NCBI GenBank assembly: GCA_964354805.1 | Contig: CAYHBD010000010.1 | Coordinates: forward strand, 8,420-72,419 | Direction: 5' to 3' | DNA: 64,000 nt | Source of the DNA: an uncultured archaeon | Lineage (GTDB): Archaea > Iainarchaeota > Iainarchaeia > Iainarchaeales > GCA-2688035 | In this document: piece after piece, positions 10,285 to 56,030 of the stretch | How the letters are laid out: every line of letters begins with the position of its first letter | How positions within the stretch are numbered: position 1 is the first letter of the stretch | Made by a program: the position numbers and the translations under genes | The notes under the pieces: generated by a model | Database searches by the model: none | Told to the model about the DNA's origin: nothing | What the model saw: the letters and a program-made list of their open reading frames with translations, nothing else

Positions 10285-10452
10285 GTTCGAACCGCCGAAC
10301 GCACTAAGCGACAGGATTTCGCAAGCCCTCTCTTTGTTTTCTTTTTCCCAGGGCTTTTCTTGGCGAAGCCCTTTTTCTTTCCCAAGGCTTTCTTTTTTCA
10401 AAAAAGAAAGGCTTCTTGAGTCCTGCGGGTTTGACCGCTTCCCTACCCGTGC
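10272..10452 (-). tRNA. tRNA-Leu(CAA) with 97-nt intron at 37/38 (10318-10414)
   Basis: Acceptor GCACGGG/CCCGTGC+A; CAGGA-CTCAAG|A-TCCTG anticodon arm; long variable arm; GGTTCGAAC T loop; relaxed BHB. Confidence 0.92.
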
Positions 10453-10500
10453 ATTAAGATAATTTTAATAAGAAAAAGGAATATTAAAAGCTTGCCCTTC

Positions 10501-10905
10501 TCAAAATTCGAGCAAATCCCCGACTTTTATCATCGGGAACCTGCCTTCCGCCCTGACAAAGATTGCACCGTGCTCTCCTTTCACCATGGCATTGGGGCTC
10601 TTGCTTCCTAACTGCAAATCAATGATGCGCAATTGCGTAGCCTGCACTTTTGTTTTCGCCTTTTTGCTTATTACACCGCTTGCAACAATGCCCTGCAGCA
10701 TTAGGCTGTCCTGCACATGGAAAACCCCGGTAACCTGAAAGGCATTGCCCATCATTGGCGTTTCAGCAATTGTAACTATTTCGTCCTTTACCTTTTTCTT
10801 TTCTTTAAGCTCAACTTCCATTGCCTTGCGCTTGCTTGCCTCAGGAATGCACACTCCAAGGCTGCGCTTTTTATCCTTTTCAAAAAGGCGCTGCAGAATC
10901 TCCAT
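10501..10905 (-). CDS. Small protein with EF-Tu domain-2-like beta barrel
   Basis: FQVTGVFHV..LQGIVASGVI..IIDLQ..GEHGAIFV..IKVGDLLEF. Confidence 0.6.
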   Translation of the reverse strand: MEILQRLFEKDKKRSLGVCIPEASKRKAMEVELKEKKKVKDEIVTIAETPMMGNAFQVTGVFHVQDSLMLQGIVASGVISKKAKTKVQATQLRIIDLQLGSKSPNAMVKGEHGAIFVRAEGRFPMIKVGDLLEF

Positions 10906-10923
10906 AACCAACCCTCTGCTCCC

Positions 10924-11007
10924 TTATATTATAGGTTATACTTAATCTCGCCCACATGAGGCTAAACAACTTCTCCTCTTCCCCAACCTTTATATTATAG
11001 GTTATAC
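10924..11007. repeat. 18-bp direct repeat ttatattataggttatac (10924-10941, 10990-11007) in a divergent intergenic region
   Basis: Exact repeat seen in sequence; contains a TATA-like core. Confidence 0.75.
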
Positions 11008-11044
11008 CTAAATGATTAAAAAATTGCCCATTCTTACTATTATC

Positions 11045-11530
11045 ATGAAACCGGCTGTTTACTGGAGAAGTGCCCTTGGCCTTTTCTGGGCATTCATGTT
11101 CTTCATTCTATTGTCACTTGTAATAGGCTTAACCTACTTGGAGAAGCTTGTCTTCTACCCTTATGCGATTTTTTTAAGCGCAATCCTTATTGTTTTCCTT
11201 GCTGCATTCGCATTATTCAAAAAAAGGTCAAAGGCAGGGCTTTACCTTTGCTTAATCCTCTCAGCACTTTTTGCATTAAACCAGATTGCGACACTTTTCA
11301 TTCTGTTAACCCAGCCATCTGAAATCCTGCCAACAGAGGTATTCAGCGCAGTTGCCAGCCTGCAGTCAACGCCCTTCCCGTTGATTGTTTCAGCCCTGCT
11401 TTTAATCTGGGCTCTGCTGCTCTGCATTGTCACCTGGAAGAGCAGGCCGTTGTTTGCGCCTGACATGCAAAAGGAACAAATTGCATGGTTTGAACAGGTG
11501 CAAAAAACAGAGGCTTATTCCTTCAAATAA
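11045..11530 (+). CDS. Membrane protein, 4 TM
   Basis: Hydrophobic segments. Confidence 0.7.
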   Translation: MKPAVYWRSALGLFWAFMFFILLSLVIGLTYLEKLVFYPYAIFLSAILIVFLAAFALFKKRSKAGLYLCLILSALFALNQIATLFILLTQPSEILPTEVFSAVASLQSTPFPLIVSALLLIWALLLCIVTWKSRPLFAPDMQKEQIAWFEQVQKTEAYSFK

Positions 11531-11631
11531 CGGCTTTGCCGAAGCAAGTTTTATGCTCAATTTATTCTTTCTTTCCCCACAATGTCAAGCATCAAAATAT
11601 TTCTTTTTTGTTTCATTGCTTGGCATTGTGC

Positions 11632-11716
11632 CAAGGCTTTCTTTTCTAAAGAAAGGCTTGCCGAAGGCATTTTTTCCCAAGCCTTTTGCACCGTAGTGCA
11701 AAAGGCTTGCCGAAAG
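11632..11716. repeat. Two intergenic palindromic modules of the family found in tRNA introns
   Basis: Minus strand reads AAGCCTTTTGCACTACGGTGCAAAAGGCTTGGGAAAA and AAGCCTTTCTTTAGAAAAGAAAGCCTTGG. Confidence 0.75.
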
Positions 11717-11749
11717 AATAAAATACAAGTTTAAACATAAAGTAAAGCA

Positions 11750-12196
11750 ATGAAAAAGGAAATTTTCTTAATTGTTTTTCTTTTTGGTGCTGTTGCTTTA
11801 AGCGGCTGCACTCAACCAGGGTCTGTTACTGTTTTCAAATACGTTTGCTTTGATGGCACGGTTGTGGAAAATCAATCTGATTGCCCTGCATTGCCTGATG
11901 TGAATTGCGAGCTAAGCTGCCCTTGCTCATGCCCCACGCCTGTTTTGCCTGAGACAAGCCAGGAGGAATTCATTCAGGGCCAGATAGATAAAGCAAACTA
12001 CTGCTCTGTAAAAGAGGACTGTGTTCTGGCTGAAAGCAAGTGCCCCTTCGGCTGCACTATTTTCGTCAACAAGAGCGAACTTGCCAGAATAAACAAAATA
12101 ATCAGCGAATACAGGCAAGTATGCAATCTTTCCTGCACGCCCCTGAAATACTATAACTGCGATGAAAACAAGTGCGTTGAAACAGACTGGGGTTAA
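11750..12196 (+). CDS. Cys-rich lipoprotein
   Basis: Signal peptide with LSGC lipobox; YVCFDGTVVENQSDCP and ANYCSVKEDC..CPFGC motifs. Confidence 0.8.
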   Translation: MKKEIFLIVFLFGAVALSGCTQPGSVTVFKYVCFDGTVVENQSDCPALPDVNCELSCPCSCPTPVLPETSQEEFIQGQIDKANYCSVKEDCVLAESKCPFGCTIFVNKSELARINKIISEYRQVCNLSCTPLKYYNCDENKCVETDWG

Positions 12197-12252
12197 AGGG
12201 CTGGCAACTCGGGCGAAAGAATAAAATAGGGGTTTGGCGTATAATTAATTAG

Positions 12253-12441
12253 GTGAATGCTTTGTTTAGATTTTTCAGGAGAAGAAAACTAATTCCTGTC
12301 CCTGCTTCCGGCAACACTCCGGGTGACAGAAGAGTTAGACCACCGATAATGACCGGCGTTCATCCATCTGTGGGAAGGGTTTACTTTGACCGATTTCTTG
12401 AGTTGTGGAAGCCAAACAAAAGAAAATCAAAAGAGCAATAG
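12253..12441 (+). CDS. Small Arg-rich orphan
   Basis: GTG start; MNALFRFFRRRK; own promoter-like sequence. Confidence 0.45.
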   Translation: MNALFRFFRRRKLIPVPASGNTPGDRRVRPPIMTGVHPSVGRVYFDRFLELWKPNKRKSKEQ

Positions 12442-12517
12442 CTGGAATTTTGCCCGAATTATTCTTCCCCTTAATTTTTCGCAGGGGCTGTAAGGAAATG
12501 CTTACAGTTTAGTGCAG

Positions 12518-12580
12518 TTACCTTAGTGTAATATAATAACCATTCTTATTTAAATATATTCGCTTATTACCTTAATGTAA
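12518..12580. promoter_or_regulatory. Two TTAC-N6-GTAA palindromic operators flanking a TATA box
   Basis: ttaccttagtgtaa 12518-12531 and ttaccttaatgtaa 12567-12580, with tttaaata between them. Confidence 0.6.
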
Positions 12581-12595
12581 CATTGAGGTGTTTTT

Positions 12596-12751
12596 GTGCC
12601 AAATCTACAGTTTTCAAAGGGCAGATGGAGCTTAACCATTCCTTTTGAAATGGTTGAATCAAAAGGCTGGCAGAAAGGCCAGCGCCTGCTATGCAATTTC
12701 AACGCCCAGGGCAACATTGAATTAAGCGAATTAAAGCCAAAAACAAAATAG
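12596..12751 (+). CDS. AbrB/MazE/SpoVT-type DNA-binding protein (51 aa)
   Basis: Not in ORF track; GAGGTG RBS; MPNLQFSKGRWSLTIPFEMVESKGWQKGQRLLCNFNAQGNIEL. Confidence 0.75.
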   Translation: MPNLQFSKGRWSLTIPFEMVESKGWQKGQRLLCNFNAQGNIELSELKPKTK

Positions 12752-12867
12752 GCCTGCTGCTCGTTTTCTGCCGTTGTAAAGCGCAGGTTTTTAAAGCTTT
12801 TTTTGAGGAAAAAGGTTTTTATAGTAGAAAAGCCTTTTTGTTACAAAACAAAGAAGGGAAAAAAAAG

Positions 12868-13314
12868 ATGCCTAAAGCACTGTTTTATATTGAGGGCAAA
12901 AACGTGCAGCATATTGGTTGCAGGCTAATTGTTACAAAACAATTAATCCACACTGGGCTCACTAAAGGCGGGGCATTCAATTTGCCTGACGGCAGGGTTG
13001 AAATTGTTTTGGAAGGGAGCGAAGACCAATTAAAAAACGCCCACAACTATATTAAAGACAATTTGATTGAATGGATAAAGCAATCAGCAAACGAAAGGGA
13101 AGAACTAAAGCGATTGATTGGAAACCCAAAGCCTGATGTCAAAATCAGTGAATTAGAGTTTAACGATTCACTGCTTGTGCTTGACATTGGGTTATTCAGC
13201 CATTCATTAACCTTTGACCAAATATACAAGGGAATAGACGTTTACAAAGATTTAACAAAATCAATCCTGCTTCTTAATCAAACACTAAAAAACAAAAACT
13301 CAGCCGGGAACTAA
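12868..13314 (+). CDS. Acylphosphatase-like protein with C-terminal extension
   Basis: GKNVQHIGCR..FNLPDGRVEIVLEG retains the catalytic R and N. Confidence 0.8.
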   Translation: MPKALFYIEGKNVQHIGCRLIVTKQLIHTGLTKGGAFNLPDGRVEIVLEGSEDQLKNAHNYIKDNLIEWIKQSANEREELKRLIGNPKPDVKISELEFNDSLLVLDIGLFSHSLTFDQIYKGIDVYKDLTKSILLLNQTLKNKNSAGN

Positions 13315-13646
13315 AAGAAGGCACTATTATAGTGAAAAAAGAAAGAGTAGCCTTCCGCTGCTGGCACTGCTTTGAATAGCTGATTGTTTTTCCTTGCTTT
13401 GAAAGGAACTTGGCAATATCCCGAACAGAACCATTTTGGGGAGCAGAACCTTCTTTGCCCTTAACATGTTTGCCTGATTTATAAGCACTGTAAAACTGTT
13501 TTACAGTGCCTGCTTTTGATTGCAGCCATGCTCTCGCTAAAACAATCGAGCCCTCTACATCGTGAAAGTCTGTGTCCCGCTGCTCCGGCAACAAATGCCT
13601 GCTGCTTGAATTTTATATAAAACTCTAAAAAAAGCAAAAGGAGGCG

Positions 13647-13725
13647 GGGCGGGAAAAAAAGAGAAAAAAACCCGCCCTGTTTTTTTTTCAAATAGCAGGC
13701 GTTGAAACGCCTGCTGCTTTTTCTT
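13647..13725. terminator. GC-rich hairpins with T tracts
   Basis: gggcggg..cccgccc followed by a T run; agcaggcgtt-ga-aacgcctgct 13694-13715. Confidence 0.5.
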
Positions 13726-13831
13726 TTTTTTCAAGCAATTGCTTTGTCTTTTCTATTTCTTCCATTTAAATGCACTGCTTGAAATAAGCCGGGAAAAAAT
13801 TGAAACCCGTGTGGCGCATAACAAAACCCTT

Positions 13832-14197
13832 TCAGGCAATTTGTGTTTCAACCAGCTGCCTTGACCACATGAACAAAACCAAGACAACAACAAGGATTAA
13901 AATAATCCAGCCGAAAGAAAAAAAGAAGCCTACAACATCAAAGCTGGTGGCGAAGCTTTCCTGACTGGCTTGAACAACATCCTGCAGCTGTGCCTTTATG
14001 CCCGCATCCTCAATTGTTGAAAAGCTTTGCTCTGCATCAGCAATCAGCGACTGCCCTTGTGCCATGAATGAAATATTTATCAATTGGGTGAATGGCAAAA
14101 GCAGGGCAAACAAAAACAGCAGGAAAATGGAGAGCGAAACGAAAGCCATGAACAAGGAAACACTGCCCCTGCCGCCTAATTTTTTTATCTCAAACAT
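13832..14197 (-). CDS. Element membrane protein with N- and C-terminal TM; candidate virion protein
   Basis: KKLGGRG followed by a hydrophobic helix (class III-like processing site); second TM at C-terminus; GGTGTG RBS. Confidence 0.7.
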   Translation of the reverse strand: MFEIKKLGGRGSVSLFMAFVSLSIFLLFLFALLLPFTQLINISFMAQGQSLIADAEQSFSTIEDAGIKAQLQDVVQASQESFATSFDVVGFFFSFGWIILILVVVLVLFMWSRQLVETQIA

Positions 14198-14245
14198 TTG
14201 CCATCACACCAACACACATATTATGTGCCTTCCAATTAAAATTTT

Positions 14246-14497
14246 TTACGCTCCGATTTTTTTTTCAATTGCCACAATTTTTTCCAATGTAGTTTTTTTC
14301 ATTTCACTCTCTGGCCATCGCTCAACTTGCGCTTTCAGCAAGCCCACTTCAATTTTCTGAAAGCCTGATATTGTTTTGCGCTCCTCGCTGCCCAGGTTCT
14401 TCTTCGCAGCTCGCTTTTGCAAGCGAACAAACTGATTAAGACAACTAAAAACGCTTTCAAAGTCCAAATACATCAAACCACCTCCTTTTTCGTTCAC
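14246..14497 (-). CDS. Hypothetical protein (element)
   Basis: Co-directional ORF; GGAGGTGG RBS before MYLDF. Confidence 0.55.
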   Translation of the reverse strand: MNEKGGGLMYLDFESVFSCLNQFVRLQKRAAKKNLGSEERKTISGFQKIEVGLLKAQVERWPESEMKKTTLEKIVAIEKKIGA

Positions 14498-14543
14498 TTT
14501 CCCGAGATAAACAATCTAAATTAAACACAACCCAACATATTCA

Positions 14544-15455
14544 TTACACTTTTAGCCGCCCTGTTGAAATCAGGGCATTTAATGCTCGCTGCAAGTTCCT
14601 TGAAACAACTTCACCACAGGAGAAATGCGCTCTAATCAAACCCACGTCAGCATAAGGCTTTCCCCTTTTATCAATGCCCGTTAAGTCTTTAATCTGCCGA
14701 ACGGCTTCCTCAAGCAATGGCTTGAAATCAATCTTTTCAATCGCCTTACCTTTCTCCCGCAGCAACTGCTCGTGCCACCTGGCAAGATTAACATCAATGT
14801 AATCAGCTTTCTTTTTCTCATAAGCGTCAACCAGCTCTTTTCTCGGCAGCGGAATAGATATTTTATCAATCCTTGAAACCTCGCCTTTCACATCCCTAAC
14901 CCTGGGCTTTGGCATATACTGTTTCCCGCTCATAGCCGAAACAGTGCTCCAGTAAAACTGTGCAAAACTGCGCTTGCTGCGAAAATCAATGCTCTCAAAC
15001 TTTGCAATGCCCGTTATGCCAACCTTGCGCACAACACTGTCAATTTGTGAAATCATGGGTGCACACATGAAAACAATAAACCCTTTTGCCCTGTAGGTTG
15101 TAACTGTGAAATTCATCCGCTTGTTTTCCTTTGTCATCGCATTCCGGGCGCTCGCTGCCTTTTCGCTGCCAGCAATTTCATCAAAAAGAATAACGCTGCC
15201 CCGCTTTAATTTTCCCTTTGAATCCCCGTTTCGCATAAGCCCAATAAAGTCTTCAACACTGAAAACAATGCGGTCGCTATTAAAGCCCGAATCCAAGTCT
15301 TGCCCAAAACGAATAGCTGCCGTGCTTTTGCCCGTGCCAGGCTTCCCAATAAACAAGAACGTGCAGTTTTGTTTTTGGCGATAAATATCCCGCCAGACCT
15401 GGCGATAAATGAAATTTCTTTTGATTTTCAACGGCATTACCTGCGTCATACTCAT
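14544..15455 (-). CDS. P-loop ATPase (Zot/B251-like; putative packaging or extrusion ATPase)
   Basis: Walker A GKPGTGKS, RIVFSVEDF, Walker B VILFDE, YRAKG..IDSVVR. Confidence 0.75.
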   Translation of the reverse strand: MSMTQVMPLKIKRNFIYRQVWRDIYRQKQNCTFLFIGKPGTGKSTAAIRFGQDLDSGFNSDRIVFSVEDFIGLMRNGDSKGKLKRGSVILFDEIAGSEKAASARNAMTKENKRMNFTVTTYRAKGFIVFMCAPMISQIDSVVRKVGITGIAKFESIDFRSKRSFAQFYWSTVSAMSGKQYMPKPRVRDVKGEVSRIDKISIPLPRKELVDAYEKKKADYIDVNLARWHEQLLREKGKAIEKIDFKPLLEEAVRQIKDLTGIDKRGKPYADVGLIRAHFSCGEVVSRNLQRALNALISTGRLKV

Positions 15456-15925
15456 TCCTCAAAATCAAAGTTTTTGCTTTTCACCGGCATCAAATTTGCT
15501 GCTCCAAACTGGGAAATGAGCAAGTCTTGAAGCTCACTCAACAAATCAAGGTATTGGTCAACCCCGTCATTAAAAAAAAACGTTTGCCCGTTTACCTGAA
15601 CCTGTTCAAGCAGCCGCAGCCGTATTTTTGCCCCGTTTATTTCCAATACATATTTTTGGTGCATTTTTGTTTTCAGTTTTGCGGACTTTGTTTTGTAGTC
15701 TTCCGTTAAAAAAGAGTTCAGCATGCTCTCAATCGTTCTGATTGCAGAATAAGCTCCTCTTGCAACCGCAACCCGCCCGTCAAACGTTTTGCGCCTCGCT
15801 TGCGAAACAGAAACCAAAAAATTATAACGGTCAAGTTCCTGCAAAACCAAGTATTGCAGGTTTGTTCGTTCATTGCGAATGTCCTCCACATTCATGCTCG
15901 CCAGAAAGCCCGTTTCCTCACTCAT
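15452..15925 (-). CDS. Hypothetical protein (element)
   Basis: ATGA-coupled to both neighbours. Confidence 0.7.
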   Translation of the reverse strand: MSEETGFLASMNVEDIRNERTNLQYLVLQELDRYNFLVSVSQARRKTFDGRVAVARGAYSAIRTIESMLNSFLTEDYKTKSAKLKTKMHQKYVLEINGAKIRLRLLEQVQVNGQTFFFNDGVDQYLDLLSELQDLLISQFGAANLMPVKSKNFDFEE

Positions 15926-16308
15926 TTAGTTTTCGCCTCCGCTTTTTCAATCAAGTCCGAAAAATCGCAGCCTTTTGGCTCGGACTTAAAAACCACTGCA
16001 AGCAACAGTTTGAGTTTAAAGTTTGCTGCCCGAACATTCCTAAATTTTTCCTCGCAATCTTGGTTTTGGCGAAAATCCAAAACGGCCTGCTCAAAACCTT
16101 TTTCGTCAGGAATCAGGCCTCGGGCGAAAACAATAGCTTCAAGGTTGTCCACTGCTACGCTAAAATAAATCATGCCATCCTCAAACTTTCCGAGTTCTGC
16201 GCTTTTTGGCAAAATGTTCAACGCAGCCCACAAAGCCGCATCGGTGCATCGTTCCGCCAAATTCTTCCTGCTAAAACCTGACCATTCGTTATCTTCCTGT
16301 TTTTTCAC
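15922..16308 (-). CDS. Hypothetical protein (element)
   Basis: GAGGTG RBS; coupled to the next ORF. Confidence 0.65.
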   Translation of the reverse strand: MKKQEDNEWSGFSRKNLAERCTDAALWAALNILPKSAELGKFEDGMIYFSVAVDNLEAIVFARGLIPDEKGFEQAVLDFRQNQDCEEKFRNVRAANFKLKLLLAVVFKSEPKGCDFSDLIEKAEAKTK

Positions 16309-16313
16309 CTAAA

Positions 16314-16574
16314 TCACCTCATTGATTTTTTTTTATAAAAAAAAATTGGGCGCTTCATTACAACTCTCTGGCTTTCAAAAAAGTCACTACGCCAGCATTC
16401 AATCTTTGAAACAAAAAAACCCTGCGCCTGCAATTCCCGCAGCTCACTCTCGGTTTTAGGCACGGCCATCTCAAAGGCTGACGGGTAAACCATCTGCGGC
16501 AGGCGGCGGGATGGAGTGAGCCGCCTGCCTTTTAACTTGGAGGTTTTTTTTCCACGAATTAAAATATGTTTCAT
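16314..16574 (-). CDS. Basic hypothetical protein (element)
   Basis: MKHILIRGKK..; ATGA overlap with the upstream 59-aa ORF. Confidence 0.55.
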   Translation of the reverse strand: MKHILIRGKKTSKLKGRRLTPSRRLPQMVYPSAFEMAVPKTESELRELQAQGFFVSKIECWRSDFFESQRVVMKRPIFFYKKKSMR

Positions 16575-16750
16575 TTTGCAACCCGCCCAGCAAATTTTCC
16601 ATGTAAATAAAAAACATAAACCCCAAAAAGGAAAACAATTGCAAGCACAGCGAAAGCCAGCAGAATATTCAAAATGGAAAAAAGCAGGCCAATGCCACAG
16701 GCCGCAACAGCAAGCAGCAAGCAGGCAACAGCGAGCAAAAGTTTTTTCAT
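16571..16750 (-). CDS. 59-aa two-helix hydrophobic protein (element)
   Basis: Not in ORF track: MKKLLLAVACLLLAVAACGIGLLFSILNILLAFAVLAIVFLFGVYVFYLHGKFAGRVAK; ATGA coupling at both ends. Confidence 0.7.
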   Translation of the reverse strand: MKKLLLAVACLLLAVAACGIGLLFSILNILLAFAVLAIVFLFGVYVFYLHGKFAGRVAK

Positions 16751-16998
16751 TCAACCATCACCCACCACACGGTTGTAGAATTTGAAACTTCAATTTTAAC
16801 AAGTCCAGCGATACGCAATTCTTGCAAAGCAATTATTGTTTCGGTTTCCGAAAAACCGTTGTTTGGATTTCCATAAATCTCCCAAGCCAAAAAATGCTTA
16901 TCGCTTGGTCGCGTTTCCGCTCTATTCCAATTCGGCATTTTCACGTTTTTGGCTTTTGGCAATTCAAGAATCTTTTTCAACAAGAGTTGCTGTTGCAT
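16747..16998 (-). CDS. Small winged-helix-like protein (element)
   Basis: ETIIALQELRIAGLVKIE..TTVWW wing pattern; AGGTG RBS. Confidence 0.5.
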   Translation of the reverse strand: MQQQLLLKKILELPKAKNVKMPNWNRAETRPSDKHFLAWEIYGNPNNGFSETETIIALQELRIAGLVKIEVSNSTTVWWVMVE

Positions 16999-23280: not shown

Positions 23281-23361
23281 TCGCAATCACCTCACTTTAG
23301 GGCTGCATTACTACACCGCAACCCTTAAAAAAGGCAACTGCGAATGAACTGCGAACACTGA

Positions 23362-23577
23362 CGCAGGGGCTGGGATTTGAACCCAGGCTCCCTTTCGAGA
23401 ACGAGCTCGCCGCAATTTTCGCTTGAAAAAGAAACCAATTTTCTTTTACTGAATCTTTTCTTTTTCAAAAAGAAAAGGCTTGTTTTGCAAAGCAAAACCC
23501 CTTTTCCCCAGGCTTTTTTGCGGAAGCAAAAAAGGCTGTTAGCAGGCTCGCGCGTTAAACCACTCCGCCACCCCTGC
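23362..23577 (-). tRNA. tRNA-Ser(GCT) with 132-nt intron at 37/38 (23408-23539)
   Basis: Acceptor GCAGGGG/CCCCTGC+G; CGAGC-CTGCTA|A-GCTCG; long variable arm; GGTTCAAATCC. Confidence 0.92.
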
Positions 23578-23634
23578 AGCTAGAAAATATTAACGGTGAA
23601 AACAATTAAAATTCATCGGTTGCAAAGTTTCTTT

Positions 23635-24027: not shown

Positions 24028-24031
24028 GTGA

Positions 24032-25117: not shown

Positions 25118-26197
25118 TTGAAGAGTCTGATTGAAAATGCAATGGACAAGTCCACTGGAAAAGTGGATGAGGATAAAATCGAGGAATTTGGAACTCCAAA
25201 GATAATGGTTGTTGGAGTCGGCGGAGCAGGCTGCAACGCGGTTAACAGGCTTGCAAACATGGGAATTTCAGGCGCACAGCTGGTCGGAGTGAACACTGAC
25301 AAGCAGCACCTTGCATTGATCAACGACGAGTTGACAAAAATCCTGATCGGAAAAAGCGTTACAAGGGGCCTGGGTGCAGGTGGCTATCCGGAGATTGGGG
25401 CAAAGGCAGCAGAGGTCAGCAGGAATTCATTGGAGGAAGTGCTGAGCGATGTTGACATGCTTTTTATTTCAGCCGGAATGGGCGGAGGCACTGGAACAGG
25501 AGCAGCTCCAATAATTGCGGAGATTGCAAAAGAGCAGGGCGCAATCGTTATTGGAATTGTGACATACCCGTTCGCTCTGGAAAAAGCAAGATTGATCAAA
25601 GCAGAAGATGGAATCGAGGCACTGAGGCAGGTTACTGACACAGTGGTTGTAATAGACAACAACAGGCTGGTTGAACTGGTTCCAAATCTGCCAATCCAGG
25701 ACGCATTCAAGGTTGCGGATGAAGTCACAGCAAGAACAGTCAGGGGAATAACTGAAACAATCACGCAGCCAAGCCTGATTAACCTGGACTTTGCTGATGT
25801 AAGGGCAGTAATGTGCAACAAGGGCCTGAGCGTTATCGCTGTCGGGGAAAGCAAGAGCGTTGACAGGGTGAACGAGGTAGTTGAAGACACTTTGAAGAAC
25901 GCTTTGCTTGATGTCGACATTGGCGGTGCAACAGGCGCAATGATCCACATTACAGGCGGACCAGACCTGACTCTTGGAGAAGCAAACGCTGTAGGGGAAA
26001 TGCTGACCGACAGGATTGACCCGAAAGCACAGGTAATCTGGGGCGCAAGGGTTGACCCAACATTCGAGAACAAGATAGAGGTAATAACAATCTTCACAGG
26101 AGTCACCTCCCCATACATTAAAGGGCCAAATCCAATCCCGAGCTCGAGCTATACACCGGCATCAAAAAGCGATTTGGGAATAGATTATTTAAGATAA
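25118..26197 (+). CDS. ftsZ: Cell division protein FtsZ
   Basis: GVGGAGCNA, GMGGGTGTGAAP, INLDFADV. Confidence 0.97.
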   Translation: MKSLIENAMDKSTGKVDEDKIEEFGTPKIMVVGVGGAGCNAVNRLANMGISGAQLVGVNTDKQHLALINDELTKILIGKSVTRGLGAGGYPEIGAKAAEVSRNSLEEVLSDVDMLFISAGMGGGTGTGAAPIIAEIAKEQGAIVIGIVTYPFALEKARLIKAEDGIEALRQVTDTVVVIDNNRLVELVPNLPIQDAFKVADEVTARTVRGITETITQPSLINLDFADVRAVMCNKGLSVIAVGESKSVDRVNEVVEDTLKNALLDVDIGGATGAMIHITGGPDLTLGEANAVGEMLTDRIDPKAQVIWGARVDPTFENKIEVITIFTGVTSPYIKGPNPIPSSSYTPASKSDLGIDYLR

Positions 26198-26256
26198 GCC
26201 TTTTTTGCTTCCGCAAAAAAGCCTTGGGAAAAAGGCCTTTGGGAAAACAAAAAAGC
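26196..26256 (+). repeat. Palindromic module matching the tRNA-Ser intron
   Basis: agccttttttgcttccgcaaaaaagcct is identical to the 5' part of the Ser intron (sense strand). Confidence 0.85.
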
Positions 26257-26348
26257 AGGGGGCAGAAAAATTACCCCTTTCTTTTTTCTTTTTTTTATTT
26301 AAATTTTAATTTCTGTTTCTTTAATTTTTGCAAGTTCAGTTCATTAAT

Positions 26349-46563: not shown

Positions 46564-46646
46564 CTGAATCAAGTATTGCTGAAAAGGGTTATAAAATTAT
46601 TATTTTATTATTCAATGGATGAATTAAGGAAAAGCGGTGTTTTTGC

Positions 46647-47516: not shown

Positions 47517-47569
47517 TTGGCTTTTTTGCCAAAAAAGTTCTTCAACAAACCATTGCCCAAAAGATTGGG

Positions 47570-49798: not shown

Positions 49799-49856
49799 AA
49801 AAATCAAACAAAATCCATTATGTTAATTATTGCGATTTGCTTTAAACAATTGCCCC

Positions 49857-50615
49857 CTATTTTGCCCCGCAGCCGCAGCTTGCTGTTCCGCAGCAGCTGC
49901 CGCCCTGGGCGGCAGCAGAGCCAGCCTGCAATTGCTTTGCAGCAATGCCTTCGCTCAGCTGTACTCCGCCGCTATTAAAGCCTTCCGCATTCGATTCGCT
50001 TACAACCTTTGCACTGTAAGTTTTGAATACCTCGATTGAGAGCAGCTGCTGCTTTGTTGTTTTGGCCGAATCAAATGTTACATCAAAAAAATTCGGGAAC
50101 TGGAATGCAACGCTTGTTACCCCTGAAAGCTTGCGCAGCTCGCTTGAAATCAATGGTGCGTGGCCGCTGCAAGGGATTTCAACCTGCAGCCTCAACTGTG
50201 AAATTGTTTGGTTGGTTGCGTTTGCAGCAGGCAATGTAGCAAGGCTTCCTGTATCAAAGTTTGCTGTCATTGGAAATATTACAAGGAAAAGCAGCAGGTT
50301 AACCGCAATGGTGCTTCCGTACATTGTTGCAAGGTATTGCTTTTTTCTTGCAATTCCTGCAATTGAAAGAATGCCGTTCCTGCGCAAATAAAAAGCAGAC
50401 GCAATTGTTGCAAAACCTATTGAGATTGCTATTAGAATGTAAAAAAACCACGGGTTCAGCAGCAGGGGCTTGAATAATTCAACAGCAAATGTTGCTCCAA
50501 GCACCGAAGCAGCAATGAACCCAATGCAGCCAAGGTGCGGAATCAACCCAAACAAGATTCCCTGCCTTATGCTCGTTTTTTCTTTTGCTTTGTTTTCCGT
50601 TGAAATGTCTTGCAT
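49857..50615 (-). CDS. Membrane protein with HMA-like domain and Cys-rich tail
   Basis: PHLGC in TM, IPCSGH, SCCGTASCGCG; AGGTGA RBS. Confidence 0.75.
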   Translation of the reverse strand: MQDISTENKAKEKTSIRQGILFGLIPHLGCIGFIAASVLGATFAVELFKPLLLNPWFFYILIAISIGFATIASAFYLRRNGILSIAGIARKKQYLATMYGSTIAVNLLLFLVIFPMTANFDTGSLATLPAANATNQTISQLRLQVEIPCSGHAPLISSELRKLSGVTSVAFQFPNFFDVTFDSAKTTKQQLLSIEVFKTYSAKVVSESNAEGFNSGGVQLSEGIAAKQLQAGSAAAQGGSCCGTASCGCGAK

Positions 50616-50639
50616 AAAATCACCTGCAACAATTGCAGC

Positions 50640-50670
50640 TGAAACCATATATATGGTTTCATGAAACCAT
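50640..50670. promoter_or_regulatory. Overlapping palindromic operators (three GAAACCAT half-sites) on a TATA element
   Basis: tgaaaccatatatatggtttca and atggtttcatgaaaccat are both perfect palindromes. Confidence 0.7.
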
Positions 50671-50708
50671 TGAAAATTGTTTAAAAACAGTAGGTAGCAC
50701 AAGTTTTC

Positions 50709-51224
50709 TTGATGGAACTGAAAATAGATTTCAGCAACAGGAAGGCAATCGCAGGCCTGATTGCCCTTGCATGCGTAATAGCTCTTGCCTTGTATCTGCC
50801 AAGCGTGATTTCGGCAACCAAATCAGAGGTATGCACGGTCGATGGGGTGTGCCTGCATGAGAAACAGCTCACGTTCTTAACCCAGCTTGTGCCTGTTTTT
50901 GTGCTTGGGGGCATAGTCATTGGCGCAGTGGTTTTCTTTTTCGTGACATCAAAGCTGGAAGACAAGCAGAGGAATGTTAAGAAACTGTCAAGCGTAATGC
51001 TAAAATTCCTCAACCCTGATGAAAGAAAGCTTGTTGATTTGCTGATTGAAAACAACGGAAAGGCATTGCAGGCTGAACTGACAAGGCTGCCTGGCATGAG
51101 CAAGGTCAAAAGCCACAGGATAATCCAAAGGCTCATGGACAGGGGCGTAATAGAAAAGGAAACACTTGGAAAAACAAATATTGTGCGCTTCAGCAAAGAA
51201 ATAAAAGAGGGGCTGTTGCAGTAA
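50709..51224 (+). CDS. Membrane-anchored wHTH regulator
   Basis: 2 TM with periplasmic-side C..CLH; FLNPDERK..QAEL..SKVKSHRII..GKTN. Confidence 0.8.
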   Translation: MMELKIDFSNRKAIAGLIALACVIALALYLPSVISATKSEVCTVDGVCLHEKQLTFLTQLVPVFVLGGIVIGAVVFFFVTSKLEDKQRNVKKLSSVMLKFLNPDERKLVDLLIENNGKALQAELTRLPGMSKVKSHRIIQRLMDRGVIEKETLGKTNIVRFSKEIKEGLLQ

Positions 51225-51664
51225 TGTCGAAAAAAACATGGCAGCAATTCCATGCCGATGTCAAGAAATTGGTAGCTGGCTTTGGCAGCTATAAGCCTGA
51301 TGTCATTGTACCTTGCATGCTCGGCGGCCTAATTCCAGGCGCAATAATTGCAAAAGCTTTGGGAATAAACGATGTAAGGCCGATTGACATTGAGAGAAAA
51401 GGAATGGAGAGAAGGCTTGCATACGATGTGCAGGGCAGCATTGCAGGAAAAAAGGTTCTTATAGTAGAGGATGATTTGCCTACTGGGATAGGGCCAGCGC
51501 TTATAAAGAAACAGTTTGAGCAAAGAGGCGCAGCAGTGAAAATAGCCGCTGTTTACGTTAACAGCGAGAGCAAGCATCTTGCTGACTTTTATGCTGCCGA
51601 ACTGCAGCAATTGCCAGATTACCCTTGGAAAAAACAGCATGCAGGCGACAGGCTGAGAAAATAA
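51224..51664 (+). CDS. Type I phosphoribosyltransferase (purine PRT-like)
   Basis: GGLIPG, VLIVEDDLPTG, YPW. Confidence 0.85.
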   Translation: MSKKTWQQFHADVKKLVAGFGSYKPDVIVPCMLGGLIPGAIIAKALGINDVRPIDIERKGMERRLAYDVQGSIAGKKVLIVEDDLPTGIGPALIKKQFEQRGAAVKIAAVYVNSESKHLADFYAAELQQLPDYPWKKQHAGDRLRK

Positions 51665-51707
51665 GCTTTAAATCATTCTTCTATAAATTAATAAAAGGGG
51701 ATTCGAT

Positions 51708-52505
51708 TTGATTGACTCAGCTGCATTGCTCGAAAAAGTGCGCGCCCAGAAACCTTTGGTGCATCATATAACCAATTGGGTAACTATTTACGATTGCGCG
51801 AACATTGTGAGGGCAATCGGCGCCCTGCCTGTAATGGCTCACGCAATTGAGGAAAGCGCTGAAATGCAATCTATAGCAAATGCGCTTGTTCTGAACATTG
51901 GCACACTTACCCCCTCATTGGTTGAAAGCATGATTGCTGCTGCAAAAAAGGCGAATGAATTGCAGCTCCCTGTTGTATTGGATGCTGTCGGAGTTGGAGC
52001 AACAAGGCTGCGGACAGAAAAAGCAAAAGAGATTCTTGAAAAAGTTCGTGTTGATGTATTGAAAGGAAACAAAAGCGAAATAGCAAAATTGGCCGGTGCT
52101 GATGTTCTCACTCGGGGGGTTGAAGCAAGTGCCGTTGAAGGAAATATTATTGAGTTGGCAAAAAAACTTGCAGCAGAGAGGCAAAATACTGTTGTTGTAA
52201 CAGGTGCGCAAGACATTGTTGCATCTGCAGGGAAAAATTTTCTGGTGAAGAACGGGCATTCCCTAATGGGCAAATTCGTTGGAACAGGCTGCATGGCTGC
52301 CTCTTTGATTGGATGCTTTGCTGCTGTTGAAAAAGATTATGCAAAAGCAAGCGCTGCTGCCTTGAGCTGCTTTGGGATTGCAGGCGAGCTTGCGGCAAAA
52401 AAAGCAAAGGCACCGGCTGCATTCAAGCAGCAGCTGTTTGATGAATTGTACAATCTCAAGCCAGCGGTTGTTAAAAAAAAGCAGAAAATAGAGGAATTAA
52501 AATGA
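51708..52505 (+). CDS. thiM: Hydroxyethylthiazole kinase
   Basis: PLVHHITNWV, LNIGTL, KGNKSEI, VGTGC. Confidence 0.93.
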   Translation: MIDSAALLEKVRAQKPLVHHITNWVTIYDCANIVRAIGALPVMAHAIEESAEMQSIANALVLNIGTLTPSLVESMIAAAKKANELQLPVVLDAVGVGATRLRTEKAKEILEKVRVDVLKGNKSEIAKLAGADVLTRGVEASAVEGNIIELAKKLAAERQNTVVVTGAQDIVASAGKNFLVKNGHSLMGKFVGTGCMAASLIGCFAAVEKDYAKASAAALSCFGIAGELAAKKAKAPAAFKQQLFDELYNLKPAVVKKKQKIEELK

Positions 52506-53137
52506 GTGCAAAGGCAAAAATTGCCGGGCTGTACTTTATCACAGACGGCAGGCTTAGCAAACAGGGCATTTTTGCTGATGTGCGACAGGTTATAGCAGCA
52601 GGCTGCAGCATTGTGCAGTACAGGGAAAAAGAGAAGGAAACAGGTGAAATGGTTGCAGAGGCAAAGCAGATTGCTGCCCTGTGCAAAAAGAACAAAATTT
52701 TGTTTTTAATTAATGACAGGATTGATGTTGCTTTGGCTGTTGATGCTGATGGCGTTCATTTGGGTCAGCAGGATATGCCTGTTGTAATTGCAAGGAAACT
52801 GCTTGGGAAAAATAAAACCATTGGCTTAACAGTGCACAGTGTTGAAGAAGCAGCGCAAGCGCAAAATCAGGGTGTTGACTATGTAAGTGTTTCCCCGATT
52901 TTTTCTACAGCAACAAAGCAGGATGCAGGAAAGCCTGTCGGCATTGAATTGATTAAAGAGATTAAAAGAGCGGTGAAAGTGCCTGTTGTTGCAATAGGCG
53001 GCATTAATGAGCAGAATGTGCAGCAGGTTTTGCAGACAGGCGCTGACAGTGTTGCAATAATTTCAGCAATTGTATGCGCTGGCAATGCTGCAGAAGCAGC
53101 AAGAAGGATTATTAAAAAAATAAGTGAATTTGAATGA
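52502..53137 (+). CDS. thiE: Thiamine-phosphate synthase
   Basis: VQYREK, INDRIDVA, DGVHLGQQD, TATK, AIGGI. Confidence 0.95.
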   Translation: MSAKAKIAGLYFITDGRLSKQGIFADVRQVIAAGCSIVQYREKEKETGEMVAEAKQIAALCKKNKILFLINDRIDVALAVDADGVHLGQQDMPVVIARKLLGKNKTIGLTVHSVEEAAQAQNQGVDYVSVSPIFSTATKQDAGKPVGIELIKEIKRAVKVPVVAIGGINEQNVQQVLQTGADSVAIISAIVCAGNAAEAARRIIKKISEFE

Positions 53138-54378
53138 CAACACAATTGGAATTTGCAAAGGCAGGAAAGACGACAAGGGAAATGCAGCAAGCTGCAAAAA
53201 GCGAGCCTGTTAATGCAAGGCAGCTGCAAAAGCTGATTGCGACAGGAAAAGCTGTTCTGCCAGCAAACAGCAGGCACCGCAACCTTAAGCCTATCGCAAT
53301 CGGCAGCGCCCTGCGCACAAAAGTGAATGCGAACATTGGCACTTCGCCGCTTAAGGCAAGCTTGCGAGAGGAATTGCAGAAAATGCGGGTTGCTGTTGCT
53401 GCAGGCGCTGATGCAGTAATGGATTTGAGCATTGGCGGAAACATTGATGCAATAAGAAAAGCAATTCTGCGCAAAGCGACTGTTCCAATTGGAACAGTTC
53501 CAATTTACCAGGCGTTTGTTGGAAAGAATCTGAGTGCTGTAAGCGAAGATGATATGTTCGATGCAATTGAAAAGCACTGCAATGACGGAGTTGATTTCAT
53601 TACTGTTCACAGCGGAGTGACAAGAAAAGCGATTCCGCTCGTGCGCAAAAGGCTTACCGGAGTTGTAAGCAGGGGCGGCTCGCTGCTTTTGAGGTGGATG
53701 CAGTACAATGCCCTGGAAAACCCGCTTTACAAAAACTTTGATTATGTTCTGGAAATTGCAAAAAAGAATGATGTAACTCTCAGTCTGGGCGATGGATTGA
53801 GGCCAGGCTGCCTGCATGACGCAACCGACAGGGCGCAATTGCAGGAGCTGAGGCTGCTCGGCAGCCTTGCGAAGAGGGCAAAAGCAAAGGGAGTGCAGGC
53901 AATGATCGAAGGACCAGGGCATGTTCCATTGAATCAGATTGAACGAAATGTGAAGATGCAGCAGCGCCTGTGCAATAACGCGCCTTTTTATGTTCTCGGT
54001 CCTATTGTTACAGACATTGCGCCGGGCTATGACCATATCACAAGCGCAATTGGAGGCGCATTAGCAGCATACTATGGCGCTTCTTTCATTTGCTATGTTA
54101 CGCCAAGCGAGCACTTGAGCTTGCCAAACGCGCAAGATGTGCGAGATGGCGTCATTGCAGCAAGGATTGCAGGGCATGCTGCTGATATTGCAAAGGGCTT
54201 GAAGGGGGCACAGCATTGGGATAATGAAATGTCTTTTTACAGGAAGAAACTGGATTGGGAAAAAATGTTTCAATTGGCAATCGATAAAGAGAAAGCAATT
54301 GCTTACAGGAAGAGGTCAAAGATAAAGGGAAAGGAATGCACAATGTGCGGTGAATTTTGTGCAATGAAGGGGATGTGA
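53134..54378 (+). CDS. thiC: Phosphomethylpyrimidine synthase
   Basis: KVNANIGTS, VSRGGS, SLGDGLRPG, EGPGH, CTMCGEFC. Confidence 0.96.
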   Translation: MTTQLEFAKAGKTTREMQQAAKSEPVNARQLQKLIATGKAVLPANSRHRNLKPIAIGSALRTKVNANIGTSPLKASLREELQKMRVAVAAGADAVMDLSIGGNIDAIRKAILRKATVPIGTVPIYQAFVGKNLSAVSEDDMFDAIEKHCNDGVDFITVHSGVTRKAIPLVRKRLTGVVSRGGSLLLRWMQYNALENPLYKNFDYVLEIAKKNDVTLSLGDGLRPGCLHDATDRAQLQELRLLGSLAKRAKAKGVQAMIEGPGHVPLNQIERNVKMQQRLCNNAPFYVLGPIVTDIAPGYDHITSAIGGALAAYYGASFICYVTPSEHLSLPNAQDVRDGVIAARIAGHAADIAKGLKGAQHWDNEMSFYRKKLDWEKMFQLAIDKEKAIAYRKRSKIKGKECTMCGEFCAMKGM

Positions 54379-54393
54379 AAATTTGGGCAGAAA

Positions 54394-55353
54394 ATGCAAA
54401 AGAGGGCAATGAAAATGCAGCTGAAGGAAATCGGCGAAATGGCTTTAATCAAGAGGATTGCAAGAAAACCAAAGCACAAGGAAGTGCTGGTTGGAATTGG
54501 CGATGATGCCGCTGTTGTAAGGTTTGGCGGAAAGCGGCTGGTGCTTACTGTTGACACTTTGGTGCAAGATGACCATTTTTCCCTTAAATGGTTTTCAGCA
54601 AAGCAGGTTGGAATGAAGGCAATTGAAATAAACGTTTCGGACATCGGCGCAATGAACTCTGTCCCATTGTATGCCCTGGTTTCACTCTGCCTGCGGAAAG
54701 ATACCCCGCTTGCGTTTGTTGACGGCTTGTATGAAGGGATTTACAGCGCTGCGCGAAAATATAAAGTTGATATAATTGGCGGAAACATGGCTCATGGAAC
54801 CCAGATAGTGGTTGATATAATGCTGGTTGGGGAGGCAAAGGGAAAAATTCCCTTGCGAAGCAATGCAAAACCAGGTGATTTGATTATCGCAAGCGGAACT
54901 CTTGGGGCATCAACAGCAGGCCTGAACCTGTTTTTGAAAAAAATAAAGGGATTCAATGCTGTGAAGAAAAAGCACTTGGAACCAAAAGCCCAGCTGCGCA
55001 AAGCATATGCCATTGCAAAATACGCTAACGCGATGGAAGACTGCAGCGATGGCCTGGCAAGCGAGGTCAGAAACATATGCAATGCAAGCAAATGCGGTGC
55101 GGTAATTGAATGGGAGAAAGTGCCTGTTTCAAGGGAAACAGAAAAAGCTGCAAAAGCGCTTGGAAAAGAGGCAAAAGACTTTGCCCTCTTCGGCGGCGAA
55201 GACTTTGAATTGATTGCAACAGTGCCGCGCAGGTTTGCGAAAAAAGTTCCTGGCTTTGTTGTTGGCGAAATAATTGGAGAAAGGAAAATTTACCTGAAAA
55301 AAGGCGGAATTAAGAGAGAATTAAAAAAGGCGGGCTTTGACCACTTTGCTTAG
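54394..55353 (+). CDS. thiL: Thiamine-monophosphate kinase
   Basis: GIGDDAA, NVSDIGAM, DCSDGL, GGEDFEL, GFDHF. Confidence 0.93.
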   Translation: MQKRAMKMQLKEIGEMALIKRIARKPKHKEVLVGIGDDAAVVRFGGKRLVLTVDTLVQDDHFSLKWFSAKQVGMKAIEINVSDIGAMNSVPLYALVSLCLRKDTPLAFVDGLYEGIYSAARKYKVDIIGGNMAHGTQIVVDIMLVGEAKGKIPLRSNAKPGDLIIASGTLGASTAGLNLFLKKIKGFNAVKKKHLEPKAQLRKAYAIAKYANAMEDCSDGLASEVRNICNASKCGAVIEWEKVPVSRETEKAAKALGKEAKDFALFGGEDFELIATVPRRFAKKVPGFVVGEIIGERKIYLKKGGIKRELKKAGFDHFA

Positions 55354-55365
55354 AACAAGCCGATT

Positions 55366-55524
55366 TTACGCCTTCTTTACCTTGTGCTTCAGCCTGAGTG
55401 CTTTGCTTCCGCACTTTCTGCATTTTCTCGGCTTTCCCGTGCCGCTCCTGTTCTTTGCATTGCACCGCATGCAAACCCACTGGTTCTTGAACAGCCTTGC
55501 ATCAGCTTCCTCAACCCTTGCCAT
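55366..55524 (-). CDS. rpl40e: 50S ribosomal protein L40e
   Basis: Not in ORF track: [48 protein letters not shown]. Confidence 0.88.
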
Positions 55525-55637
55525 AAAAAACACCTAATGCCCAGAAATCGATTTAAATTCGAAACAGGCTCAATTAATCTTATAAACAAGAAACTATTTA
55601 AATATTAGAGATTAAAACAATAACAGGAGGCTACAAG

Positions 55638-55820
55638 ATGGGCAGTGCAAGAAAAAGCATGGCAAATAAGATTGGCTGCGCAGGACGAATGGGCCATCCT
55701 ACCGTTATGCATACTGGGTCAAAAAGGGGATCGCCGATAACAACTGTAAGTACTTTTCGTAAGATAAAAGCAATGGCAAAGAGAAGAAGAAATAGGGCTC
55801 GAAGAAAGGAAACTAAGTAG
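55638..55820 (+). CDS. Small basic orphan
   Basis: AGGAGG RBS and TATA upstream; K/R-rich. Confidence 0.5.
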   Translation: MGSARKSMANKIGCAGRMGHPTVMHTGSKRGSPITTVSTFRKIKAMAKRRRNRARRKETK

Positions 55821-55877
55821 CAGTAGCCAATTAAATAAGTTGCTTTTCAATATTTTTTAACAAGAAACCAATTTCTT

Positions 55878-56030
55878 GCCCCGATAGTGTAGCCCGGCTA
55901 AGCACACGGGCCTTTCAACACAGCTTTTCTTTTAGAAAAAGAAAAGCTGTATCAAAAGAAAACAGCTTCGCATGAAAAAGCTGTAGCATGAAGAAAGCCT
56001 GTAACCCGGGTTCAAATCCCGGTCGGGGCA
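55878..56030 (+). tRNA. tRNA-Glu(TTC) with 78-nt intron at 37/38 (55918-55995)
   Basis: GCCCCGA/TCGGGGC+A; CGGGC-CTTTCA|A-GCCTG; GGTTCAAATCC; CTTT/GAAG central helix. Confidence 0.92.

Follow-up and report, generated by a model that had tools for sequence, protein, structure and literature searches.

A family of short hairpin repeats has been copied to new places in the lineage of an uncultured archaeon of the Iainarchaeota (DPANN), with copies in spacers, in frame within protein genes and at the 5′ end of tRNA introns. The family probably consists of clade-specific, non-autonomous DNA repeats that depend on their structure and survive where little harm is done, and it is apparently undescribed, as literature searches returned no publication on it. 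A first-pass annotation of the window (the whole stretch of DNA analysed, 64,000 nucleotides) had proposed that hairpins in three tRNA introns, a copy behind ftsZ and a pair of modules near 11.6 kb are related, and our covariance model together with the architecture of the units places them all in one repeat family. Its interpretation stood in part: a dispersed palindromic element using introns as safe havens fits the lineage-specific insertions, shared runs and intron variation described below, while the mirror tail, the in-frame gene copies and the fixed sense position at the 5′ end of introns had been missed.

Distribution and anatomy of the repeat

The source genome (G000) is a 1.38 Mb MAG, 88.5% complete, in which genes were called by a crude ORF method. 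A genome-wide scan with the covariance model recovered about 110 copies, and relatives also carry the family. A strict pattern matched 62 times in G000 and at most 116 times in a relative (G016); among 151 genomes, its matches clustered in a single family of the order, with a patchy distribution inside a genus. The reversed pattern, used as a control, gave 0 matches across the 151 genomes, which, together with co-varying stems and a recurring 28-mer that is expected 0 times, rules out an artefact of composition. Nine pairs of copies at unrelated loci have exact common runs of 30–45 nt, which we read as recent copying.

Each unit runs from a pyrimidine arm through a loop to a purine arm, and a CTTG-type linker then leads to a purine tail, the mirror image of the purine arm; a small, variable GC hairpin usually trails it. 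The core measures about 42 nt, or 45–60 nt with the trailing small hairpin. Conserved flanks around co-varying stem cores, as first described from the window, were borne out across the family: 98.8% of stem cells pair, compared with 41–74% in slid controls, and 162 cells are changed on both sides versus 31.8 in shuffles, although these covariation counts are inflated by subfamily inheritance, because the alignment was fitted to the model and the copies are related. The conserved AAGCC..GCCTT base has a fixed C.C mismatch, seen in 101 of 111 distinct copies.

The segment AAAGAAAA, noted behind the first hairpin in the first-pass annotation, is not a spacer but the tail that mirrors the purine arm. 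A full mirror match of the tail was found in 75 of 106 G-interrupted copies, whereas 1000 permutations averaged 42.5 and never exceeded 53; where the arms are asymmetric, a mirror fits 55/77 copies and a direct copy 21/77. Tail and stem are positionally associated in register (p=4e-13 and p=3e-7) and negatively so out of register. Likewise, in orthologous tRNA-Ser(GCT) introns the stems differ, each being paired with its own matching tail. The succession of pyrimidine, purine and mirror reverse-Hoogsteen purine domains is the sequence layout of a class II intrastrand triplex motif, the purine motif of the bacterial BoxC/PIT/TM-ECO repeats (Holder et al. 2015, PMC4666352). The unit, as a single DNA strand, would accordingly be predicted to fold as a class II purine-motif intrastrand triplex, and the complementary strand reads as a pyrimidine-motif layout. 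In nearest-neighbour folding, which models the hairpin only, the energy of A/T-run copies was not unusual (z −1.0 to −1.6). Cores are also depleted of stop codons, 36% being open in all six frames versus 0.2% of shuffles.

Modules in tRNA introns

Default-mode ARAGORN detected no tRNA genes and the Rfam gathering threshold only tRNA-Glu; the tRNA-Leu, -Ser and -Glu genes were found by ARAGORN in intron mode (Table 1). The intron lengths given by the first-pass annotation for Leu, Ser and Glu were confirmed by measurement against intronless orthologues. At tRNA-Glu, a bulge-helix-bulge is also recognisable, with a 6-bp anticodon-stem helix, a central helix CTTT/GAAG and the bulges CAA and AAA; the Leu and Ser borders rest on the intronless orthologues, A/T-run pairings having swamped the bulge-helix-bulge scan there.

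Table 1. Repeat copies and the tRNA genes that host them in the window.
Feature	Positions	Strand	Basis
tRNA-Leu(CAA) gene	10271-10453	-	ARAGORN with introns
Leu intron, 97 nt, canonical 37/38 position	10318-10414	-	intronless orthologues in G013, G018, G004, G020
Leu intron, 5′-end module	10371-10415	-	covariance model 53 bits, E 6e-10
Leu intron, remainder: second, degenerate unit	10318-10370	-	read from sequence
Intergenic head-to-tail array	11620-11720	-	covariance model 55.5 and 30.5 bits
tRNA-Ser(GCT) gene	23360-23578	-	ARAGORN
Ser intron, 132 nt	23408-23539	-	orthologue comparison
Ser intron, first module (T6-GC stem, TTCC loop)	23498-23539	-	covariance model 62.1 bits
Ser intron, second module	23440-23482	-	weak covariance-model match, E 0.11
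~52-nt insertion directly after ftsZ stop	26196-26249	+	covariance model 64 bits
tRNA-Glu(TTC) gene	55877-56031	+	Rfam tRNA 46.4 bits; ARAGORN
Glu intron, 78 nt	55918-55995	+	intronless orthologues
Glu intron, variant module, AGCT base	55918-55962	+	mirror match 9/10; DNA fold
Glu intron, second hairpin CAGCTT..AAGCTG	55963-55985	+	sequence; MFE fold

The stem of the Leu module is formed by the pyrimidine arm TTTCTTTTTT and the purine arm AAAAAAGAAA; the linker GCCTTGG and the mirror tail GAAAGAAAAA (mirror match 10/11) follow. The degenerate unit beside this module comprises a hairpin GGGCTT..AAGCCC and the tail GGGAAAAAGAAAA. The CTTG within the 3′ segment GGCTTGCGAA of this intron could pair with the anticodon CAA plus G37. 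The first module of the Ser intron has a core identical to that of the copy after ftsZ, and the 28-mer reported as common to both loci is indeed exact at 23510–23537(−) and 26197–26224(+), with 0 occurrences in 100 shuffles; in the orthologous introns of other species, this spot is taken by different module variants. The stem of the second Ser module is interrupted (TTTTCTTTTT/AAAAAGAAAA) and its 3′ base degenerate, with AAAAGAAAA as the tail; this module is probably the older copy, because orthologues carry interrupted-stem modules in the first position.

The hairpin of the Glu module lies directly after the 5′ bulge. This module reads ACAGC-TTTTCTTTT-AGA-AAAAGAAAA-GCTGT, with a linker ATC and the mirror tail AAAAGAAAA, and its DNA fold is predicted at −13.3 kcal/mol (z −5.8). 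Having an AGCT base where AGCC is usual, it reaches a covariance-model E of only 0.03–0.06 and would belong to the family by virtue of its shared architecture; about ten further copies of the AGCT-base variant lie elsewhere in the genome. The second Glu hairpin corresponds to hairpin 2 of the Leu intron.

Genome-wide, 17 of the 22 G000 introns of at least 30 nt begin with a sense copy, and intron copies are always sense and located 0–3 nt past the 5′ splice site. Intron length, which the first-pass annotation had proposed to compare at orthologous tRNAs, is polymorphic there: orthologous tRNA-Leu(CAA) and tRNA-Ser(GCT) genes extend from intronless (0 nt) to introns of 163 nt, the tRNA-Ser(GCT) orthologues being intronless in G014, G021, G018 and G004 and having module introns of 66–163 nt in ten other genomes. 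In these Leu and Ser comparisons, the first position of the intron is always occupied by a module. Modules would lengthen introns while leaving the anticodon-pairing 3′ segment untouched, and module copying into introns may explain their long, variable lengths. Random insertion of DNA does not predict the sense-only, fixed 5′ position, so selection or a targeting rule is needed in addition.

Insertions in spacers and genes, and the search for a mobilising enzyme

The two intergenic modules that had been placed at 11632–11716 lie head to tail at 11631–11709(−). On the minus strand, the array is made up of a module (11668–11709), a small hairpin TGCCTTCGGCA, a second module (11631–11659) and an end-cap hairpin TTGGCA..TGCCAA (11620–11634). 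The same end-cap hairpin occurs at the C16 and C30 copies. Six of seven neighbouring copy pairs are head to tail, the exception being an ambiguous perfect palindrome. Many copies lie directly 3′ of stop codons or tRNA 3′ ends. The ORFs flanking intergenic copies are full-length separate genes, judged by size alone, which argues against genes split by the repeat.

The ftsZ locus shows one such insertion. Behind the stop codon TAA (26195–26197) come a module with its mirror tail and then a short trailing segment; a conserved GC hairpin and its T-run lie further downstream. In eight relatives, the syntenic spacer lacks the insertion and keeps stop codon, GC hairpin and T-run. An exact 40-nt twin of this copy is found at C42:25874–25913. 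Within protein genes, Elp3 contains an in-frame insert of 45 nt that is lacking in 14 relatives, and IleRS and Dus contain in-frame inserts of 54 nt each; the three inserts are absent in 6–14 relatives, and the host genes are Pfam-confirmed. No bulge-helix-bulge bracketing the Elp3, IleRS or Dus inserts was found, which speaks against splicing of the gene copies. An apparent in-frame copy in a Fic gene lies inside a larger composite repeat common to four loci and was not counted as a clean insertion. At the ftsZ, Elp3, IleRS and Dus junctions, no target-site duplication was detected beyond 1–2 ambiguous A residues, and adjoining A residues are the only target feature at the junctions examined.

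The first-pass annotation had envisaged a RAYT/TnpA gene flanked by modules, and this was not borne out. A RAYT gene was not found in G000. Its two Y1 genes are ordinary IS200 transposases, scoring 108 and 103 bits on the IS200 TnpA model and 39 and 34 bits on the RAYT model (cut-off 80). Their own hairpins are unrelated to the modules, ten loci around Y1 genes contain one module in total, and Y1 gene counts across genomes do not track module counts, so that RAYT was rejected as the mover. A MITE was likewise rejected, given the lack of target-site duplication and a search of G000 that returned no TnpB zinc-ribbon domain, DDE_Tnp_1 transposase or related IS.

Explanations and comparison with known systems

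Under the explanation that we favour, copying would act on DNA and depend on the fold, as suggested by variants keeping stem and tail matched, and copies would persist only at low-harm sites. Such refuges would be spacers, often right after stop codons and in head-to-tail arrays; protein loops, the core being nearly without stop codons in six frames and the inserts 45 or 54 nt long; and tRNA introns, from which splicing would remove the copies. More tentatively, and we regard this further step as rather doubtful, the repeat could drive the gain and enlargement of tRNA introns in these archaea: a triplex-hairpin of single-stranded DNA, recognised by a putative enzyme, would insert beside the anticodon or an existing copy, and the tRNA splicing machinery would then neutralise it.

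The copies could also have arisen with no dedicated enzyme, if the triplex or hairpin stalled replication and was multiplied by template switching, slippage and gene conversion between the conserved flanks, with conversion also swapping cores at fixed sites. The head-to-tail arrays would fit this, as would the different module variants at the same orthologous intron position. Local instability has been associated with intrastrand triplex repeats in bacteria, for which no transposase is known (PMC4666352), and no transposase partner was found for the family described here. However, slippage alone would hardly yield clean single-unit insertions at unrelated sites such as Elp3, IleRS and ftsZ, and members of one array differ in their cores and are therefore not simple tandem duplications, which makes an enzyme-free origin unlikely.

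The position of many copies immediately behind a stop codon or a tRNA 3′ end, the conservation of flanks across genera and the constant first place of the module in orthologous introns would all be expected of a cis-element that serves the host and is selected at each site, whether as a terminator, an RNA 3′-end protector, a protein-binding site or a splicing helper, the latter as an intron-side helix beside the 5′ bulge; T-runs are archaeal termination signals. We nevertheless consider such a role decidedly unlikely, as it accounts neither for in-frame insertions in Elp3, IleRS and Dus nor for copy numbers from 0 to 116 within one genus, and intergenic copies show no consistent orientation relative to flanking genes (24 co-oriented, 16 anti-oriented). 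Moreover, the tRNAs and the ftsZ spacer of relatives work without the element; behind ftsZ, relatives have retained a GC hairpin and T-run of their own, and a terminator-only reading of the module was therefore dropped.

Least likely among the explanations weighed here is an RNA-mediated, intron-first origin, in which the module is a mobile bulge-helix-bulge intron core, excised (circular) introns re-insert into other RNAs and find their way back into DNA, and the spacer and gene copies arise as by-products. Such an origin would fit the intron copies, which are all sense and at the splice junction, the mostly sense orientation of verified gene copies, and the presence of related introns across many different tRNAs, as reported for Thermoproteales. 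Against it stand antisense copies in real genes (e.g. a DHH protein) and in spacers, arrays and post-stop copies without bulge-helix-bulge context, the lack of such a motif around the gene inserts, and a search of the 88.5%-complete genome in which no reverse transcriptase was found. In addition, the sense RNA would carry the purine motif, an intrastrand triplex that RNA reportedly does not adopt (PMC4666352). The alternative put forward in the first-pass annotation, that new copies are seeded by excised introns, gained no support.

For the origin, spread and growth of archaeal tRNA introns, this lineage offers a concrete candidate defined by its sequence: most long introns can be traced to a single repeat family, their presence and length vary between close relatives, and fresh insertions outside introns show recent activity of the repeat. 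Were the repeat indeed the agent of intron gain, a DNA parasite and the archaeal splicing endonuclease would form a host-parasite pair, and a working model for the origin of bulge-helix-bulge introns would be at hand. The in-frame copies in IleRS, Elp3 and Dus indicate that selfish insertions into essential genes are tolerated in streamlined DPANN genomes.

In our literature searches, this is the first archaeal dispersed repeat with triplex-type covariation; it would extend the poorly understood BoxC/TM-ECO class and supplies natural compensatory variants for biophysics. The archaeal unit matches BoxC/PIT/TM-ECO repeats in the order of its parts on one strand (pyrimidine arm, loop, purine arm, short loop, second purine segment); both kinds are dispersed, differ widely in copy number between close relatives and have no known mobilising enzyme. 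The bacterial repeats, in contrast, are G/C-rich (CCCTCNCCC..GGGNGAGGG) and have not been reported in introns or in frame in genes, whereas the archaeal family is based on A/T-runs, with an AAGCC/GCCTT base containing the C.C mismatch and usually a trailing variable hairpin.

The label 'REP-like' given in the first-pass annotation holds for anatomy, since REPs and BIMEs are also short imperfect palindromes with conserved flanks, a variable stem top and many copies, often after genes, singly or clustered. It fails on the link to RAYT, for which only IS200 TnpA was found, its genes unflanked by modules, and on the arrays, which are head to tail and not alternating as in BIMEs; archaeal copies also lie inside genes and introns.

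The Rickettsia palindromic elements (RPE), reported by Ogata et al. (2000, 2002), are reportedly about 100–150 bp long and occur in frame in protein genes as well as at non-coding sites. The archaeal family resembles them in being palindromic, in its non-coding sites and in its in-frame insertions in conserved genes, absent from orthologues and presumably translated as extra loops; RPE are not known to have a triplex-type mirror tail, and the archaeal units are 45–54 nt long with tRNA introns as their main refuge. Finally, Thermoproteales are reported (Fujishima et al. 2010) to have related introns common to different tRNA genes, gained and lost on short time scales, a family reportedly confined to tRNA genes and often at non-canonical positions. 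The repeat described here shares the related introns in different archaeal tRNA genes and their gain and loss over short times, but it is plentiful in spacers and genes too, and the introns that it occupies are canonical 37/38 introns, with the unit at their 5′ end.

Extent and fold of the repeat family

The three intron-bearing tRNA genes described in the first-pass annotation were all recovered in the window (ARAGORN, introns allowed), and the 28-mer that it had placed both behind the ftsZ stop codon and in the intron of tRNA-Ser(GCT) proved identical at the two sites, with no such match in shuffled sequences. In an unbiased hairpin scan, hairpins starting AAGCC or AAGGC formed by far the commonest class, and a common framework runs through the copies: A-AGCC, T-run, variable top and loop, A-run, GCCT-T, GGGAAAA. 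A covariance-model scan, proposed in the same annotation and carried out with a model trained on 15 copies, found about 110 copies in the genome that holds the window (1.38 Mb in 49 contigs, GC ~44%; the window lies on contig C10), where a strict pattern gave 62 matches and the same pattern read backwards gave none. Two short contigs of this assembly, C12 and C19, have a GC content of ~61% versus ~44% in the remainder of the bin and are probably mis-binned.

When the strict pattern was run on 151 genomes of the order, its matches clustered in one taxonomic family, with low copy numbers in a few others and none found in most of the order. Copy counts span 0 to 116 inside a single genus, and the highest count among relatives, 116, comes from a different genus than the genome that holds the window; counts from related genomes are not independent of each other.

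The co-variation of stem cores noted in the first-pass annotation was borne out in a structure alignment of 116 matches from the window and relatives, in which 162 cells changed on both sides versus 31.8 in shuffles, and pairing in stem cells was 98.8%, compared with only 41–74% when the partner column was slid, although these covariation figures overstate the independent evidence, because the alignment was produced by fitting to the model and its members are related copies. The predicted hairpin is nevertheless secure because of its many distinct stem variants; its conserved base carries a C.C mismatch in 101 of 111 distinct copies, and for copies with A/T runs folding energy by itself is not decisive.

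Each module consists of a pyrimidine arm, a loop, a purine arm, a CTTG-type linker and a purine run that reads as the purine arm reversed but not complemented. This mirror tail, which is unable to Watson-Crick pair with the pyrimidine arm, matches at full length in 75 of the 106 copies with a G-interrupted A-run (permutations: mean 42.5, maximum 53); where the arm is asymmetric, 55/77 agree with the mirror and 21/77 with a direct copy. Taken one column at a time, the choice of G or A in the arm is predictive of the choice at the mirrored position of the tail (p=4e-13 and 3e-7), and pairs of columns out of register show a negative association. In tRNA-Ser(GCT) intron orthologues the stems differ between species, and every stem has a tail to match. 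This arrangement corresponds to a class II purine-motif intrastrand triplex, and we infer from the sequences that such a triplex may form physically; the opposite strand of such a unit has a pyrimidine-motif triplex layout (PMC4666352).

Copies in spacers and genes

In the spacer following the ftsZ stop, the genome carries about 52 extra bases, which are the module, while eight relatives without them keep the stop, the GC hairpin and the T-run; this copy has an exact 40-nt twin on another contig. Elp3 contains 45 additional in-frame bases, absent in 14 relatives, and IleRS and Dus contain 54 each (gene calls by a simple longest-ORF method, with these host genes confirmed by Pfam). What was inserted is a module together with a small, variable GC hairpin. 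The junctions of this unit adjoin A residues, and comparison of the ftsZ spacer and in-gene inserts with relatives showed no clear duplication at them. Exact runs of 30–45 nt are common to nine copy pairs at unrelated loci. In 36% of copies versus 0.2% of shuffles, none of the six reading frames of the core is closed by a stop codon, and no bulge-helix-bulge bracketing the in-gene inserts was found; therefore, these inserts are most likely translated.

Several further elements adjoin or contain modules (see table). The GC-rich hairpin downstream of ftsZ, followed by a long T/C-rich run and common to this genome and eight relatives, lies between two convergent genes and resembles a conserved terminator that works in both directions and has no connection with the repeat. 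Downstream of tRNA-Trp and of tRNA-Lys, interrupted-stem modules in tRNA sense begin 1–2 nt past the 3′ end and might be part of the 3′ trailers. Upstream of genes, several modules of this kind continue into the extension GGGAAAGAAAGAATAAAT, which resembles a BRE/TATA-like promoter segment. A larger composite repeat comprises a common left arm (CAAGAAACTTTTGGAAAA..TTCATCAAAA), at least one module and a common right arm that includes the hairpin GTGGCAATAAATAAACTTTATATGCCAC, whose core is TATA-like; the contig C8 example passes in frame through a Fic-domain ORF.

Locations of features associated with the repeat or found in its survey (C, contigs of assembly GCA_964354805.1; L, loci in relatives)
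Feature	Location	Strand
AGGGG..CCCCT hairpin and T/C-rich run	window 26250-26300; syntenic spacers L209-L219	
Module after tRNA-Trp	C2:29864	
Module after tRNA-Lys	C18:232	
Module with GGGAAAGAAAGAATAAAT	C3:16829	
Module with GGGAAAGAAAGAATAAAT	C9:95717	
Module with GGGAAAGAAAGAATAAAT	C43:28402	
Module with GGGAAAGAAAGAATAAAT	C46:11864	
Module with GGGAAAGAAAGAATAAAT	C8:20600	
Composite repeat	C8:49770-49960	
Composite repeat	C9:34010-34180	
Composite repeat	C43:19530-19720	
Composite repeat	C35:43470-43700	
tRNA called Ile(TAT)	C42:32258-32377	-
IS200-type Y1 transposase gene, stand-alone	C35:572-1015	-
IS200-type Y1 transposase gene, stand-alone	C13:1268-1786	+

The search for a RAYT or TnpA gene flanked by modules, also proposed in the first-pass annotation, found none: the two Y1 genes of the genome score as IS200 TnpA, not RAYT, have hairpins of their own at their flanks in place of modules, lack a TnpB partner and are unrelated to the module family. 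Across genomes, Y1 counts do not follow module counts, and a search of the 88.5%-complete assembly turned up no reverse transcriptase, TnpB or DDE transposase.

Modules in tRNA introns

About 25 tRNAs of the genome bear introns (ARAGORN, introns allowed), and 17 of the 22 introns of at least 30 nt open with a module, placed 0–3 nt from the 5′ splice site and without exception in tRNA sense. The proposed test for intron-length polymorphism at orthologous tRNAs was positive: tRNA-Leu(CAA) is intronless in four species of one genus and has 55–152-nt introns, each starting with a module, in nine other genomes, and tRNA-Ser(GCT) lacks an intron in four genomes and has 66–163-nt introns in ten. Within the Ser intron of this genome, a copy with a T6 run in its stem, identical to the ftsZ copy, precedes an interrupted-stem copy, the kind that is the first module in other species' Ser introns, an order suggestive of addition of new units at the intron's 5′ edge. 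Arrays outside introns are likewise head to tail. In tRNA-Glu, the bulge-helix-bulge involves the anticodon region and the 3′ end of the intron, with the module hairpin immediately following the 5′ bulge. The tRNA called Ile(TAT) has a 48-nt intron without a module; it contains a C-box-like GTGATGA and could be an intron-encoded C/D box RNA.

Interpretation and relation to known systems

The observations are best accounted for by a non-autonomous DNA repeat that depends on its fold and is retained at harmless sites, chiefly tRNA introns. That intron copies are strictly in sense requires an extra assumption, either selection, given that an antisense copy would give the RNA two U-runs and a pyrimidine-motif triplex layout, or a rule of targeting by which, for example, units insert next to one already present. 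Alternatively, an intron core may have spread through RNA, the module may be a cis-element that serves the host, or copies may have spread without an enzyme, via template switching and gene conversion. We found no publication describing the family in the literature searched.

The earlier proposal of introns as a safe haven for a palindromic repeat agrees with this preferred reading. The general anatomy of the module is REP-like, but the defining RAYT and BIME features fail. The module layout resembles that of bacterial triplex repeats, and the in-frame copies in genes are reminiscent of Rickettsia palindromic elements.
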